A DNA stretch of 64,000 bases from Escherichia coli (GTDB lineage: Bacteria; Pseudomonadota; Gammaproteobacteria; Enterobacterales; Enterobacteriaceae). The notes beneath the pieces are model-generated. The model made no database searches. It saw nothing but the letters and a program-made list of their open reading frames with translations, and was not told the DNA's origin. Below are positions 3,861 through 62,495 of the stretch, one piece after another. The DNA lies in NCBI RefSeq assembly GCF_051903065.1, contig NZ_CP178438.1. One strand, given 5' to 3'. The position numbers and the translations under genes were made by a program. Positions within the stretch are counted from its first letter, which is position 1. Every line of letters begins with the position of its first letter.

Positions 3861-3936
3861 TCCTCTGTAGTTCAGTCGGTAGAACGGCGGACTGTTAATC
3901 CGTATGTCACTGGTTCGAGTCCAGTCAGAGGAGCCA
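3861..3936 (+). tRNA. asnV: tRNA-Asn (anticodon GTT)
   Basis: Identical 76-nt tRNA-Asn sequence to the copy at 1452-1527. Confidence 0.93.
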
Positions 3937-16411: not shown

Positions 16412-16449
16412 GCAAAAAATAACCGACGCTGATGAAACGTCGGTTTTTA
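16412..16449 (-). terminator. Candidate terminator downstream of yeeY
   Basis: Stem AACCGACG...CGTCGGTT with T-runs on both sides. Confidence 0.5.
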
Positions 16450-16531
16450 GTCATTTTTTGACAGCGGCGCATTGTGCCTAAATGGGGGGGAAATGACAAG
16501 AGAATGAGAGGCTTGTCATAATAATTTTTCT

Positions 16532-17506: not shown

Positions 17507-18331
17507 TTACTCCAGCGGCATTACCAGCGGATCGGGATACTGGTATTCAAACCCCAGTTCATTACAAATCCGACTGCCATCAATAATCTTACCTTTGCCG
17601 CTGTCCAGACTATTTCTGAACTGCGGAGGTTCCAGCCCCAGTAAACGGGCCATCTGCGGATAGAAAACATTACGCGCAGGGTGAGCTGGCGCACATATAT
17701 TATAGATGTGTCCGCCTTTAGGTGCCTGTAACAACAGAGTGATAGCGCCAATAACATCTTCTAAATGGACTAAATTAACACCATGTTCACCATCAGGCGC
17801 AGTTTTTCCGGCAAAGAAGCGTCCGGGATGACGTCCCGGTCCGACCAGCCCCGCAAGACGCAGAATATCGACCGAAGTACCGGGTAAATTGTGCAGCCAG
17901 TCTTCGAGTTCTTCTAATACTCGTCCACTGTTGGTCACCGGATTACGCGGGGTGGTTTCTTTCACCGTGCCTTGCGCGTCGCCATAGACAGACGTTGAGC
18001 TGGTAAAAATAATGCGGGGAATACGATGGGCCAGCGCGCTATCCACTAACTCTTGTACCGCTTGTAAATAGAACTCATCGCCGGGGCCGCTACGACGTGC
18101 CGGAAGCGTAATGACCAGGGCGTCGGCATCCATCAGGGCATCCAGATCGTCAGAATCGCAAACTAACTCAGGCTCCATGCGAAGCAGATAGCTATCAATG
18201 CCACTCATTCGGGCCGCTTCGACACCATCTTGTGTGGTTTTACTCCCGGTGACTTGCCAGCCTCGCGCTGAAAGTGACATCGCCAGCGGCATGCCTAACC
18301 ACCCTAACCCGACAATTGCGACCTTTTTCAT
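17507..18331 (-). CDS. yeeZ: NAD(P)-binding Rossmann-fold protein (epimerase/dehydratase-like)
   Basis: 274-aa ORF MKKVAIVGLGWLGMPLAMSL... Confidence 0.85.
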   Translation of the reverse strand: MKKVAIVGLGWLGMPLAMSLSARGWQVTGSKTTQDGVEAARMSGIDSYLLRMEPELVCDSDDLDALMDADALVITLPARRSGPGDEFYLQAVQELVDSALAHRIPRIIFTSSTSVYGDAQGTVKETTPRNPVTNSGRVLEELEDWLHNLPGTSVDILRLAGLVGPGRHPGRFFAGKTAPDGEHGVNLVHLEDVIGAITLLLQAPKGGHIYNICAPAHPARNVFYPQMARLLGLEPPQFRNSLDSGKGKIIDGSRICNELGFEYQYPDPLVMPLE

Positions 18332-18435
18332 CCGTTATCTCCTGATACACCTTAGATCTATAAGGCTACGCTAGCGTATCAAAACTGACAATTCATTCTA
18401 TGAATGAAATCGAAACGGTTAGCAAATATACCATT

Positions 18436-18535
18436 GCCTGATGCGCTCCGCTTATCAGTCCTACAAAAACTTCAATATATTGAATTTACGCAACATTTGT
18501 AGACCAGATAAGGCATTCACGCCGCATCCGGCAGG
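18436..18535. repeat. REP/BIME palindromic units
   Basis: GCCTGATGCGCTCCGCTTATCAGTCCTACA ... TGTAGACCAGATAAGGCATTCACGCCGCATCCGGCAGG; same family as the REPs inside the colanic acid operon. Confidence 0.65.
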
Positions 18536-18689
18536 AACAAAGCCCACTTTAGTTACAGAACACAATGTTCTTGAGGGTTTTAAAGACATATTTTCACGAT
18601 TACTTCTCTAACGTAGTCACTCCAGGCCCCCACCTTTCCCCGCTCATTCATTAAACAAATCCATTGCCATAAAATATATAAAAAAGCCC

Positions 18690-18719
18690 TTGCTTTCTAA
18701 CGTGAAAGTGGTTTAGGTT
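18690..18719 (+). promoter_or_regulatory. Candidate his operon promoter (-35 TTGCTT, -10 TAGGTTA-like)
   Basis: TTGCTT, about 17-18 nt spacer, then TTAGGTTA, roughly 40 nt upstream of hisL. Confidence 0.45.
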
Positions 18720-18757
18720 AAAAGACATCAGTTGAATAAACATTCACAGAGACTTTT

Positions 18758-18808
18758 ATGACACGCGTTCAATTTAAACACCACCATCATCACCATCATC
18801 CTGACTAG
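18758..18808 (+). CDS. hisL: his operon leader peptide
   Basis: ATG ACA CGC GTT CAA TTT AAA CAC CAC CAT CAT CAC CAT CAT CCT GAC TAG = MTRVQFKHHHHHHHPD with seven consecutive His codons. Confidence 0.92.
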   Translation: MTRVQFKHHHHHHHPD

Positions 18809-18869
18809 TCTTTCAGGCGATGTGTGCTGGAAGACATTCAGATCTTCCAGTGGTGCATGAACGCATGAG

Positions 18870-18908
18870 AAAGCCCCCGGAAGATCACCTTCCGGGGGCT
18901 TTTTTATT
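18870..18908 (+). terminator. his attenuator terminator hairpin
   Basis: AGCCCCCGGAAGATCACCTTCCGGGGGCTTTTTTATT between hisL and hisG. Confidence 0.88.
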
Positions 18909-18953
18909 GCGCGATTGATAACGGTTCAGACAGGTTTAAAGAGGAATAAGAAA

Positions 18954-19853
18954 ATGACAGACAACACTCGTTTACGCATAGCTATGCAGAAATCCGGCCG
19001 TTTAAGTGATGACTCACGTGAATTGCTGGCGCGCTGTGGCATTAAAATCAATCTTCACACCCAGCGCCTGATCGCGATGGCAGAAAACATGCCGATTGAT
19101 ATTCTGCGCGTGCGTGACGACGACATTCCCGGTCTGGTAATGGATGGCGTGGTAGACCTTGGGATTATCGGCGAAAACGTGCTGGAAGAAGAACTGCTTA
19201 ACCGCCGCGCCCAGGGTGAAGATCCGCGCTACTTTACCCTGCGTCGTCTGGATTTCGGCGGCTGCCGACTTTCACTGGCAACGCCGGTTGATGAAGCCTG
19301 GGACGGCCCGCTCTCCTTAAACGGTAAACGTATCGCCACCTCTTATCCTCACCTGCTCAAGCGTTATCTCGACCAGAAAGGCATCTCTTTTAAATCCTGC
19401 TTACTGAACGGTTCTGTTGAAGTCGCCCCGCGTGCCGGACTGGCGGATGCGATTTGCGATCTGGTTTCCACCGGTGCCACGCTGGAAGCAAACGGCCTGC
19501 GCGAAGTCGAAGTTATCTACCGCTCGAAAGCCTGCCTGATACAACGCGATGGCGAAATGGAAGAATCCAAACAGCAACTGATCGACAAACTGCTGACCCG
19601 TATTCAGGGCGTGATCCAGGCGCGCGAATCAAAATACATCATGATGCACGCACCGACCGAACGTCTGGATGAAGTCATCGCCCTGCTGCCAGGTGCCGAA
19701 CGCCCAACCATTCTGCCGCTGGCGGGTGACCAACAGCGCGTAGCGATGCACATGGTCAGTAGCGAAACCCTGTTCTGGGAAACGATGGAAAAACTGAAAG
19801 CGCTGGGAGCCAGTTCAATCCTGGTCCTGCCGATTGAGAAGATGATGGAGTGA
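18954..19853 (+). CDS. hisG: ATP phosphoribosyltransferase
   Basis: [20 protein letters not shown]...; RBS AGAGGAATAAG upstream. Confidence 0.95.
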
Positions 19854-19858
19854 TCGCC

Positions 19859-22229
<2,371 letters not shown>

Positions 22230-22230
<1 letters not shown>

Positions 22231-23296
22231 TGAGTCAGAAGTATCTTTTTATCGATCGCGATGGAACCCTGATTAGCGAACCGCCGAGTGATTTTCAGGT
22301 GGACCGTTTTGACAAACTCGCCTTTGAACCGGGCGTGATCCCGGAGCTACTGAAGCTGCAAAAAGCGGGCTACAAGCTGGTGATGATCACTAATCAGGAT
22401 GGTCTGGGAACACAAAGTTTCCCGCAGGCAGATTTCGATGGCCCGCACAACCTGATGATGCAGATCTTCACCTCGCAAGGCGTGCAGTTTGATGAAGTGC
22501 TGATTTGTCCGCACCTGCCCGCCGATGAGTGCGACTGCCGTAAGCCGAAAGTGAAACTGGTGGAAGGTTACCTCGCTGAGCAAGCGATGGATCGTGCCAA
22601 CAGTTATGTGATTGGCGATCGCGCGACCGATATTCAACTGGCGGAAAACATGGGCATTAATGGTTTACGCTATGACCGCGAAACCCTGAACTGGCCAATG
22701 ATTGGCGAGCAACTCACCAGACGTGATCGTTACGCCCACGTGTTGCGCAACACCAAAGAGACGCAGATTGACGTCCAGGTGTGGCTGGATCGTGAAGGTG
22801 GCAGCAAGATTAACACCGGCGTTGGCTTCTTTGATCACATGCTGGATCAGATCGCCACCCACGGCGGTTTCCGCATGGAAATCAACGTCAAAGGCGACCT
22901 CTATATCGACGATCACCACACCGTCGAAGATACCGGTCTGGCGCTGGGCGAAGCATTAAAAATCGCCCTCGGCGACAAACGCGGTATTTGCCGCTTCGGT
23001 TTTGTGCTGCCGATGGACGAATGCCTTGCCCGCTGCGCGCTGGATATCTCTGGTCGCCCGCACCTGGAATATAAAGCTGAATTTACCTACCAGCGCGTGG
23101 GCGATCTCAGCACTGAAATGATCGAGCACTTCTTCCGTTCGCTCTCATACACCATGGGCGTGACGTTGCACCTGAAAACCAAAGGTAAAAACGATCACCA
23201 CCGTGTAGAGAGCCTGTTCAAAGCCTTTGGTCGCACCCTGCGCCAGGCCATCCGCGTGGAAGGCGACACCCTGCCCTCGTCGAAAGGAGTGCTGTA

Positions 23297-23297
<1 letters not shown>
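22230..23297 (+). CDS. hisB: Bifunctional histidinol-phosphatase / imidazoleglycerol-phosphate dehydratase
   Basis: [19 protein letters not shown]...; start overlaps the hisC stop. Confidence 0.95.
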
Positions 23298-25375
<2,078 letters not shown>

Positions 25376-25382
<7 letters not shown>

Positions 25383-25987
25383 CAGAACAACAACGCCGCG
25401 AACTGGACTGGGAAAAAACCGACGGACTGATGCCGGTGATTGTGCAACACGCGGTATCCGGTGAAGTGTTAATGCTGGGCTATATGAACCCGGAAGCTCT
25501 GGACAAAACCATCGAAAGCGGCAAAGTCACCTTTTTCTCCCGCACTAAACAGCGACTGTGGACCAAAGGCGAAACGTCGGGCAATTTCCTCAATGTGGTG
25601 AGTATTGCCCCGGACTGCGACAACGACACGTTACTGGTACTGGCGAATCCCATCGGCCCAACCTGCCACAAAGGCACCAGCAGCTGTTTCGGCGACACCG
25701 CTCACCAGTGGCTGTTCCTTTATCAACTGGAACAACTGCTCGCCGAACGTAAATCTGCCGACCCGGAAACCTCCTACACCGCCAAACTGTATGCCAGCGG
25801 CACCAAGCGCATTGCGCAGAAAGTGGGTGAAGAAGGCGTGGAAACCGCACTGGCAGCAACGGTACATGACCGCTTTGAGCTGACCAACGAGGCATCTGAC
25901 TTGATGTATCACCTGCTGGTGCTGTTGCAGGATCAGGATCTGGATTTAACGACGGTAATTGAGAACCTGCGTAAACGGCATCAGTGA
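25376..25987 (+). CDS. hisI: Bifunctional phosphoribosyl-AMP cyclohydrolase / phosphoribosyl-ATP pyrophosphatase
   Basis: [38 protein letters not shown]... Confidence 0.95.
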
Positions 25988-26083: not shown

Positions 26084-27064
26084 TTATTTCGCGTTGTAGT
26101 TGCGTAGAGCATTACGCCCCAGCACAATCCCCGCGCCAACCATGCCGCCCAGCAGCATCGCCAGAATCAAGGTGATTGCCTTTTTCGGACTATCGCGACG
26201 AATAGGTAACGTCGGTTTCATCACATAACGGTAAGCATGAATATCAAGATCATCAACTTTTAAGCTTTCGATATCCAGCAGGTTTTGACGAGTCTGATAG
26301 TAGTTTGGCGAGAACACCAACGGACGGGTCGCCTCATGCTTAATCATCGACTCCAGCGCTTCGCTCCCCAAAAGGAACAACGTATCTTGCGTGATATCTT
26401 CGCCAGTCTGTTGAATTTGCGGTTTTGTCACCTGCGCCTGATTCGCATACTGCAACGCTTCCTGAATCTGACGGATACGCAGATCTTTCTGCTCTTGCGC
26501 GACTACTTCCTGAGTTCTTAAAGAGTCCTGCAAGTTTTTCATACGCAGCGCGATGTTGTCTTTCAGGTCTTTTTCCAGCTCTACGTTTACCTGGTCGTCA
26601 ACTTGCTGGATATACTTCGCCAGCTGCTTCTGAGCACCTTCAGGTGTTTCACCAACATAAGACACCGCTAAAGGTAATGACTGATTTTTAACGGTAGGCT
26701 CAATGGTCAGCTTTTCTGCTTCTTCCTGGTTATCCAGCGTTTCCGCTAATGCTGAGAATGCAGTGCTGTAACGTCCGATAAGCGAAGCCTGAATGTCGGA
26801 GACTTTCGGTACAGCCGGACCGTAAATCACATTCATCGCGTTGGTATAACCAGCGATTTGCCCCACATCAGGTTGAGTAACGATAGCTGTGGAAGTCCAC
26901 TTTTCTTTGGCAACGGCCAGATACCCTATAGCCAGGGCAATAGCCACAATGACAGAGATGATAATTGTCATCTTGCCGCGCCACAACTGCACCAGTAAAT
27001 CAATCAAATCAATCTGTTCCGGGTCATGGTTTTGCCCAGAAACATTATTATTTTCTACTCTCAT
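26084..27064 (-). CDS. wzzB: O-antigen chain-length determinant (Wzz, polysaccharide co-polymerase)
   Basis: MRVENNNVSGQNHDPEQIDLIDLLVQLWRGK... with N- and C-terminal TM segments; the track ORF is extended 19 codons. Confidence 0.9.
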   Translation of the reverse strand: MRVENNNVSGQNHDPEQIDLIDLLVQLWRGKMTIIISVIVAIALAIGYLAVAKEKWTSTAIVTQPDVGQIAGYTNAMNVIYGPAVPKVSDIQASLIGRYSTAFSALAETLDNQEEAEKLTIEPTVKNQSLPLAVSYVGETPEGAQKQLAKYIQQVDDQVNVELEKDLKDNIALRMKNLQDSLRTQEVVAQEQKDLRIRQIQEALQYANQAQVTKPQIQQTGEDITQDTLFLLGSEALESMIKHEATRPLVFSPNYYQTRQNLLDIESLKVDDLDIHAYRYVMKPTLPIRRDSPKKAITLILAMLLGGMVGAGIVLGRNALRNYNAK

Positions 27065-27210
27065 CATTACCCTAACGGACGAAATAATTTTAAGTCGCCA
27101 TAGTTTAGCGATAATCGCCATGAATGCTATAGGATAAATGATAAAAATAATGAATTATTACAAAGGGAACATAAGAGAATCAGGGCGAAAATCGCCCTGA
27201 TAACAGGATG

Positions 27211-36854: not shown

Positions 36855-36895
36855 TAAATAACGCTACCGCCCCTGGCTTTACAGCTACCAGAGCA
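36855..36895 (-). promoter_or_regulatory. JUMPstart element with ops (RfaH-dependent antitermination) upstream of the O-antigen operon
   Basis: Plus-strand AACGCTACCGCC is the reverse complement of GGCGGTAGCGTT (ops core GGCGGTAG); surrounding CCCCTGGCTTTACAGCTACCA also occurs upstream of wza. Confidence 0.7.
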
Positions 36896-37156
36896 CTGCA
36901 TGCATGTCTACGATGTGACGAGCGTTACCCACTCGCGCTTAACTCGAAAAATTCAAACGCTAATTGTCTTACCAATCCGCTCTGGAAACAAGGAAAATCC
37001 TGGAAAACTTTGACTAAAATCCTATTGCTAACTCGTTGTTATTCTGATTGTTTATATAAAACAACGGCAGGAATATTCGCAACAAATTACTTTCGCCACG
37101 AATCCTCACTGCCGTTATAATTTTCTTATCAACCGTTACATCCGGTCAGATTTTCA

Positions 37157-43409: not shown

Positions 43410-43597
43410 GCCTGATGCGACGCTGGCGCGTCTTATCAGGCCTACAAGACCCGAGCACAGAACCGTAGGCCGGATAAGGCGTTCACGCCGCATCCGGCAT
43501 TCAGTGCCTGATGCGACGCTGACGCGTCTTATCAGGCCTACAGGTCCCGAGCACAGAACCGTAGGATGGATAAGGCGTTTTACGCTGCACCCGGCAA
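43410..43597. repeat. REP/BIME cluster (about 4 units) between wcaK and wzxC
   Basis: Repeated GCCTGATGCGACGCTGGCGCGTCTTATCAGGCCTACA... / ...GGATAAGGCGTTCACGCCGCATCCGGCA units. Confidence 0.8.
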
Positions 43598-47923: not shown

Positions 47924-48012
47924 GTCGTTACCCTTTTTCAGGCAATAGTTGGCCCTGACCGAAGCGGCCAATTTTGTTTTTGTCGTTATTTACACCGCGG
48001 TTTCGCATTCAT

Positions 48013-62439: not shown

Positions 62440-62495
62440 TTTCAGGCATCCAGACACGCTACCGCCCCTGGCTTTTTAGCTACCAATACACTGAT
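62440..62495 (-). promoter_or_regulatory. JUMPstart/ops element in the wza 5' leader
   Basis: Plus-strand CACGCTACCGCCCCTGGCTTTTTAGCTACCA; reverse complement contains GGCGGTAGCGTG; about 180 nt upstream of wza. Confidence 0.75.

Follow-up and report, generated by a model that had tools for sequence, protein, structure and literature searches.

How does the short stretch upstream of hisG in this Escherichia coli chromosome control the histidine operon, and do the helices usually described for it cover all that is conserved there? The window, meaning the whole 64,000-nucleotide stretch of contig NZ_CP178438.1 that was analysed, contains at 18758-18908 an element that a sequence-only reading had described as a well-known case of translation-coupled attenuation control of hisGDCBHAFI. 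Textbooks have treated the his attenuator as a standard example since 1978-1980. The his leader and attenuator of E. coli K-12 and Salmonella are the subject of Di Nocera 1978, Barnes 1978 and Johnston 1980. Our analysis agrees with this description: 18758-18908 is the textbook his-operon leader with its attenuator, already known and base-for-base that of K-12.

The identity of the element was established by family, genome and operon comparisons. The Rfam model RF00514 (His_leader) matched the plus strand at 18784-18907 over its full length (model positions 1-126 of 126), with 131.6 bits against a gathering score of 49 and E = 1.4e-21; the span given by the sequence-only reading was correct, as it begins at the ATG and ends 1 nt beyond this match. 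Of 5426 complete E. coli genomes, 5423 contained the 401 bp around the leader that served as a query, and the matching DNA carries the annotations hisL (his operon leader peptide), His leader region and hisG. In a RefSeq record that was 100% identical over the 401 bp, the gene order was yeeY, yeeZ (opposite strand), hisL, hisGDCBHAF-IE, wzzB and ugd. The eight open reading frames between 18954 and 25987 correspond to HisG, D, C, B, H, A, F and IE, all scoring above the NCBIfam equivalog cut-offs. The earlier assignment to hisGDCBHAFI is thus backed by the Rfam match, the RefSeq annotation of hisL and hisG, and the NCBIfam operon genes.

Positions 18633-18913, which include the promoter, the transcription start (A18727), the leader ORF, all stems and the terminator, were identical to K-12 MG1655, in which the element was originally characterised. 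The only nearby substitutions were A instead of G at 18914 and G instead of C at 18950, both past the terminator, together with one upstream at 18632. The peptide, the segments A-F, the operon and the location after yeeZ are the same as for the K-12 his leader, and the element is well known, as had been claimed. As an anchor, it places the window in the E. coli chromosome at yeeZ-his-wzzB-ugd; its value for discovery is small.

The flanks of the locus were also compared. K-12 has a 658-bp stretch with the yefM-yoeB toxin-antitoxin pair between yeeZ and hisL, which is absent in the window; the 217 bp found instead at 18409-18625 have no long ORF and contain REP-like palindromes, e.g. GCCTGATGCG...CTTATCAG and CAGATAAGGCATTCACGCCGCATCCGGCAGG. 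The allele lacking yefM-yoeB was present, with at least 80% query coverage, in 1196 of 5426 complete E. coli genomes. On the other side of the operon, the longest ORF of wzzB (26084-27121, minus strand) encodes 345 aa, of which residues 20-345 align with the NCBIfam WzzB model (325 positions), and the RefSeq protein of a related strain has 325 aa; the true start is probably about 20 codons inside the longest ORF. Elsewhere in the window, we noticed two tRNA-Asn (GTT) genes with identical Rfam scores, 2.4 kb apart on the plus strand (1452-1527 and 3861-3936), a match to the STnc240 sRNA between the plaP/yoeI region and yeeY (16412-16486, minus strand; 68.2 bits), one to the REP/BIME-derived naRNA4 (43468-43538, plus strand; 79.7 bits), and one to the Rfam "algC RNA" motif (47928-47977, minus strand; 77.3 bits against a gathering score of 33.8). 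Two JUMPstart elements were found on the minus strand downstream of his-wzzB-ugd, at 36860-36898 (58.8 bits) and 62455-62493 (57.3 bits). Judged by map position only, each presumably belongs to the leader of a long polysaccharide operon, the two being the O-antigen and colanic acid clusters.

Table 1. Features of the his leader and attenuator in the window, with positions and the basis of each assignment.
Feature	Position	Strand	Basis
his promoter (as read): -35 TTGCTT 18690-18695, 18-nt spacer, -10 TAGGTT 18714-18719	18690..18719	+	sequence reading
Transcription start (+1), A18727; leader RNA of ~180 nt	18727	+	residue-numbering fit to PMC10989985
hisL leader peptide ORF, product MTRVQFKHHHHHHHPD followed by stop	18758..18808	+	translation; hisL in identical RefSeq DNA; exact match to K-12 hisL
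Seven His codons in a row (sensor)	18779..18799	+	CAC CAC CAT CAT CAC CAT CAT
Predicted long-range helix: GCGUUCA 18765-18771 with UGAACGC 18858-18864, and CACCA 18779-18783 with UGGUG 18851-18855	18765..18864	+	minimum-energy fold
Helix A:B, 18791-18804 with 18813-18826, 12 bp	18791..18826	+	Rfam structure line, minimum-energy fold; -12.2 kcal/mol
Helix B:C, 18809-18816 with 18827-18834, 8 bp including one G.U; first helix of the antiterminator state	18809..18834	+	-8.2 kcal/mol
Helix C:D, 18827-18834 with 18843-18850, 8 bp	18827..18850	+	Rfam structure line, minimum-energy fold; -11.0 kcal/mol
Predicted position of the RNA polymerase pause, 3' U of ...GAUGUGUGCU, followed by G	18828	+	G-10/Y-1/G+1 consensus at 18819/18828/18829
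Helix D:E, GAUCUUCC 18841-18848 with GGAAGAUC 18879-18886, 8 bp; antiterminator proper	18841..18886	+	-9.9 kcal/mol
Helix E:F, intrinsic terminator, core 18868-18883 with 18889-18904, loop AUCAC	18865..18907	+	Rfam structure line, minimum-energy fold; -29.5 kcal/mol
Regulated genes: hisG 18954-19853, hisD to 21163, hisC to 22230, hisB to 23297	18954..25987	+	NCBIfam equivalog, RefSeq gene order
Regulated genes, continued: hisH to 23887, hisA to 24624, hisF to 25382, hisIE to 25987		+	NCBIfam equivalog

The leader ORF opens with the ATG at 18758, closes with the TAG at 18806-18808 and comprises 16 sense codons, so that translation confirmed both the 16-codon frame and the run of histidine codons proposed earlier. 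A run of seven in-frame CAY codons occurred a single time in the 64-kb window, both strands counted, compared with 0.00 expected from 100 dinucleotide-preserving shuffles. The ORF lies on the same strand as hisG, and AGAGA, a Shine-Dalgarno-like sequence, is located 5 nt upstream of its ATG; its translation is predicted. The 154-nt leader folded with -68.4 kcal/mol, whereas the shuffled sequences gave -37.2 +/- 3.9 (z = -7.9) and none of 200 shuffles was as stable. The combination of a seven-His-codon leader with a hairpin far beyond chance was therefore confirmed.

Upstream of the ORF, we take TTGCTT and TAGGTT to be the -35 and -10 hexamers, from what is known of the his promoter of Salmonella and E. 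coli; an A+T-rich discriminator, AAAAGAC, is found 3' of the -10 hexamer. Neither this promoter nor the terminator was called in a consensus promoter/terminator scan of 18300-19100. We rejected this result as evidence of their absence, since TTGCTT matches the -35 consensus at only 3 of 6 positions and since the terminator stem takes up the first U's, leaving fewer than five T's after the maximal stem. For the transcription start, A18727 was the sole offset that placed residues U49, G127, U128 and G129 of PMC10989985 on T, G, T and G. That paper gives the his leader RNA as 180 nt and describes the attenuation mechanism; counted from A18727, such an RNA would stop at 18906, where the U run ends.

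We presume U18828 to be the exact pause position, from what is known of the his pause. The pause hairpin corresponds to the top of A:B (18800-18817, 5 bp with an 8-nt loop), and the K-12 hisL pause studied in PMC9291695 is identical in sequence. That study gives the pause consensus as G-10/Y-1/G+1, and its mutations show that the hisL pause needs the hairpin.

The leader can form five helices, A:B, B:C, C:D, D:E and E:F, arranged in a chain in which neighbours share bases. Segment A includes His codons 5-7 and the Pro and Asp codons. GGAAGA is common to C and E and UCUUCC to D and F, so that D can pair with C or E, and E with D or F. The mutually exclusive hairpins on which the sequence-only reading relied are present: B:C overlaps A:B at 18813-18816 and C:D at 18827-18834, whereas D:E overlaps C:D at 18843-18848 and E:F at 18879-18883. 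The GC-rich hairpin with a U-run that had been noticed after the ORF was located at 18865-18907. The terminator hairpin, AAAGCCCCCGGAAG-AUCAC-CUUCCGGGGGCUUU, has 14 bp and extends to 19 bp (18865-18883/18889-18907); six U's (18900-18905) follow or overlap its stem, and it ends 47 nt before hisG. RNase III has been reported to cut the terminated leader within the E:F stem and to clear this RNA (PMC5371410).

The response of these helices to a ribosome was modelled by folding with the 5' part of the RNA masked up to the 3' edge of the ribosome (A-site codon plus 12 nt); different polymerase positions were represented by different 3' ends. In transcripts ending at 18886-18892, which offer E but not yet F for pairing, the unmasked RNA was predicted to form A:B (0.97) and C:D (0.92), with B:C and D:E both at 0.00. 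With the A site on His codons 2-5, A:B and C:D fell to about 0, and B:C (0.95-0.96) and D:E (0.89-1.00) were formed instead; with the A site on His 6, A:B was again about 0, B:C reached 0.63-0.88 and D:E 0.67-0.94. Taking His 2-6 together, D:E amounted to 0.86-1.00 for 3' ends at 18888-18892 and to 0.67-0.99 for a 3' end at 18886. According to masked folding, a ribosome stalled on His 2-6 thus leads to B:C and D:E, with the 5' arm of the terminator sequestered, whereas the untranslated RNA adopts A:B and C:D.

However, the equilibrium models did not reproduce the switch at every step. With the ribosome at the stop codon and the transcript ending before F, D:E (0.78-0.96) was predicted rather than C:D; in these models this contradicts the expected termination, unless C:D persists, having been completed about 35 nt before E emerges. 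Elf and Ehrenberg assign just such a role to this extra hairpin of the his leader, which keeps basal read-through low (PMC1183508). In equilibrium folds of the full-length leader, the antiterminator never formed, whatever footprint was masked, and the terminator always did; C:D with E:F has -40.5 kcal/mol, compared with -18.1 for B:C with D:E. The suggestion that a fold of 18808-18910 would display both pairings was thus borne out for the terminator state but not for the antiterminator, which was absent at equilibrium and appeared only in transcripts stopping before segment F. Since the full-length RNA always ends in the terminator at equilibrium, the switch must be a kinetic one: D:E would have to forestall E:F during the short time in which the polymerase is still on the U run. 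As far as these models go, anti-termination would rest on this kinetic argument and not on equilibrium thermodynamics.

The reading frame, the codon run, the five helices with their overlaps, the footprint-dependent switch in thermodynamic models, the RNA family, the identity to K-12 and the downstream operon were all observed at this locus, and the best explanation is almost certainly ribosome-mediated attenuation of transcription in the his operon of E. coli. For pausing, coupling, the order of folding and the response to histidine, we infer the course of events from established knowledge, which for the response to charged tRNA-His consists of published work on this very sequence. Transcription would begin at A18727, and the polymerase, having transcribed hisL, would pause near U18828 behind the A:B pause hairpin, which would give time for a ribosome to load on hisL. 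When charged tRNA-His is scarce, the ribosome would stall at 18779-18799 and cover segment A. B would then pair with C, leaving D free to capture E on its emergence, and E would be kept from F, so that no terminator forms and the polymerase reads through into hisGDCBHAFI. When tRNA-His is plentiful, the ribosome would reach the stop codon at 18806-18808 and cover B; C:D would form fast, followed by E:F, and the terminator with its U run would release the transcript of about 180 nt. If hisL is not translated at all, A:B, C:D and E:F would form together, closed by the long-range helix, and termination would be maximal.

To find out which pairings are maintained in related bacteria, we collected further his leaders. 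One genome per species was scanned for seven CAY codons followed by CCNGAY, which gave 120 loci; in about 70 of them a TAG followed, and 53 complete distinct leaders were aligned. These came from some 25 genera of Enterobacteriaceae, including Salmonella, Citrobacter, Klebsiella-group relatives, Enterobacter, Kluyvera, Leclercia, Kosakonia, Atlantibacter, Mangrovibacter, Trabulsiella and others. Nine further leaders were obtained via HisG homologues (from Yersinia, Serratia, Pectobacterium, a second Pectobacteriaceae genome, Symbiopectobacterium, Rahnella, Rouxiella, Photorhabdus and another enterobacterium) and one from a metagenome, giving a total of 63 other Enterobacterales leaders, in which both alternative structures were about 99% paired; the ten added sequences scored 96-118 bits on RF00514. 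A set of 33 leaders covered Enterobacteriaceae, Yersiniaceae, Pectobacteriaceae and Morganellaceae.

The remaining loci of the CAY scan were discarded as unrelated His-rich or antisense sequences. In Kluyvera, for instance, the seven-CAY pattern at L025 5460-5486 (minus strand) is the antisense of a Gly-rich GGDGGDGGDGG motif in an Obg GTPase gene. The same 30-mer was seen in L024, L027, L032, L067 and L085; with L025, these loci belong to unrelated taxa (Tolumonas, Kluyvera, Granulosicoccaceae, Desulfuromusa, Ignatzschineria and Oceanobacter).

The length of the His run varied among leaders (examples at L120 1183-1345, minus strand, L127 501-640 and L130 529-679). Trabulsiella odontotermitis TbOT1.10 has 10 His codons, owing to a 9-nt CACCATCAT duplication, compared with 7 in another strain (L114). 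The run comprises six codons in Yersiniaceae and Pectobacteriaceae (NHHHHHHPD) and reads H-Y-H-H-H-H in Photorhabdus; a Symbiopectobacterium leader has only 3 His codons (MLRVLSNHHHLD).

Among 54 Enterobacteriaceae sequences, the mean column entropy was 0.41 in loops and spacers and 0.10 in stems (Mann-Whitney p = 5e-4), both alternative structures were 99.4-99.5% paired, and two-sided pair changes were absent. The only common stem polymorphism, A18831G (16 of 54), gives G.U pairs with both U18846 in C:D and U18812 in B:C. In the 33 leaders, the terminator-state and the antiterminator structures were each 98.7% paired, compared with 38-55% and 42-56%, respectively, when partners were slid by 1-3 columns; by helix, pairing was 100% for C:D, 99.2% for B:C and 98.1% for D:E. 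Compensatory pairs were found in E:F, where C-G changed to U-A in five sequences and G-C to A-U in two, and these seven cells were reached by none of 500 shuffles. For B:C and D:E together, only one compensatory cell was found, 183 of 500 shuffles did as well, and all one-sided changes were compatible with wobble pairing.

As each of these segments has two partners, the stems are nearly frozen, and covariation in this sample neither supports nor refutes B:C and D:E. The GGAAGA/UCUUCC motif of C, D, E and F is essentially frozen over the four families; it varies only in ways that still allow wobble pairing with either alternative partner, as expected for segments with two partners. A metagenome scan for a leader with C = CUGGGAGG returned one locus (L123), in which D was unchanged and the two new G's wobble with U, so that compensation was absent. 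With the nine distant HisG-linked leaders, E:F and the long-range helix gained compensatory changes, but B:C and D:E did not. We read the alignments as indicating strong conservation of the alternative pairings, none of the tolerated changes being in conflict with them.

The minimum-energy fold also contained a pairing that lies outside the Rfam model, which starts at 18784. The 5' strand of this long-range helix corresponds to hisL codons 3-5 and the 3' strand to the spacer between D and E, and in the untranslated leader it closes A:B and C:D into a multi-arm structure. The long-range pairings add roughly 12 kcal/mol (-35.6 for a 3' end at 18866, compared with -23.2 at 18852). RNAalifold predicted the helix independently on the 33-leader alignment, and when the leaders were folded singly its mean pair probability was at least 0.77 in 31 of 33. 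In total, 94.9% of cells were paired, compared with 19-36% when the partners were slid. Three compensatory pairs were noted, one sequence each, a number reached by 4 of 500 shuffles. In Photorhabdus, a G-C pair became A-U, as Val GUU changed to Ile AUU and GAACGC to GAAUGC, and in ESL0689 a G-C pair likewise became A-U. CGUUC remained fixed while the encoded peptide varied (RVQ, NVL, CVQ, HVQ), which suggests a constraint at the RNA level. The comparative evidence for the helix is modest, as each change occurred in a single lineage.

What this helix might do is a separate matter. In 1983, Ames et al. suggested that the his leader resembles tRNA-His, and the helix may be the stem of this tRNA-His-like fold. 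A further reaching proposal is that the helix, together with the pairing of the His codons with GUGGUG, is a selected and functional part of the attenuator that was omitted by Rfam and by the A-F description, that it locks the untranslated leader into the terminating form (super-attenuation) or forms a tRNA-like platform, and that it explains the "DnaA box" conservation. We regard this proposal as rather unlikely. The long-range pairings overlap or adjoin the proposed rDnaA boxes 1/2 and 3, so the helix offers an RNA-level explanation for the conservation that PMC10989985 (2023) gave to DnaA sites.

The latter study provides a different view of the same nucleotides, namely that rDnaA boxes of the leader RNA, at about 18772-18782 and 18852-18860, are bound by DnaA, which together with tRNA-His would hold the A:B/C:D/E:F form; attenuation would then be DnaA-dependent, additionally or instead, and not governed by ribosome position alone. 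The leader RNA was immunoprecipitated with DnaA-FLAG and deletion of nt 48-54 or 128-134 caused de-attenuation (PMC10989985), and in our alignments both box stretches were conserved across genera. However, its authors saw no DnaA binding in vitro and concede that they cannot conclusively show the binding to be direct; each box has two mismatches to the DNA consensus, and the 128-134 deletion also alters the predicted RNA fold (PMC10989985). Moreover, box 1/2 lies just 3' of GCGUUCA and includes the first bases of the CACCA strand, while box 3 shares bases with UGGUG and with the beginning of UGAACGC, so that the long-range pairings, with their compensatory changes, explain much of the box conservation without a protein. 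We consider a DnaA-dependent attenuator improbable. The outer helix could alternatively serve a function of the terminated leader of about 180 nt itself, as a tRNA-His-like decoy or a trans-acting small RNA, rather than attenuation. The 1983 comparison with tRNA-His (Ames et al.) would fit such a role, and so would the closed multi-arm structure (outer helix, A:B and C:D) predicted for the untranslated leader in 31 of 33 species. The terminated leader is a discrete RNA species, as it accumulates in an RNase III mutant (PMC5371410). The same work shows, however, that RNase III actively clears it. Neither a target nor an experiment was found for a trans role of the leader RNA, and all conserved leader features are also explained by the mechanism in cis. 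A role in trans therefore appears very doubtful.

The equilibrium fold of the full leader, which is the terminator state only, would also be expected of an ordinary intrinsic terminator beside a chance short ORF, without any switching. Yet yeeZ, the upstream gene, is on the other strand, and the terminator therefore ends no upstream gene. If it acted constitutively, at 47 nt from hisG, an essential biosynthetic operon would be shut down. Furthermore, conservation over four Enterobacterales families extends to the ORF, the His run and each of the six segments, and the alternative helices exist and respond to footprint masking. A terminator without a switch deserves next to no credence; in practice, this conservation and the genetics published for the same sequence in K-12 refute it.

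Attenuation by the translating ribosome, the preferred reading, can finally be set beside known systems. The DnaA "riboswitch" proposal of PMC10989985 concerns the same RNA, whose boxes are unchanged here as the leader is that of K-12, and adds a protein ligand whose direct binding is unproven. T-box leaders of amino-acid operons in Firmicutes resemble the his leader in that they sense tRNA charging and choose between terminator and antiterminator; unlike the his leader, they bind uncharged tRNA directly and need neither a leader peptide nor a ribosome, and the window contained no T-box match at Rfam gathering scores. The trp attenuator (trpL) shares with his a leader peptide with regulatory codons, a pause hairpin and mutually exclusive antiterminator and terminator helices, and in both the position of the ribosome decides the outcome. 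However, trp also has a repressor, whereas his regulation combines attenuation with ppGpp control of the promoter, according to PMC10989985. The trpL leader has two Trp codons and four segments (1-4), while that of his has seven His codons and six segments, with the additional hairpin C:D, by which basal read-through is kept low and the dynamic range large (PMC1183508).
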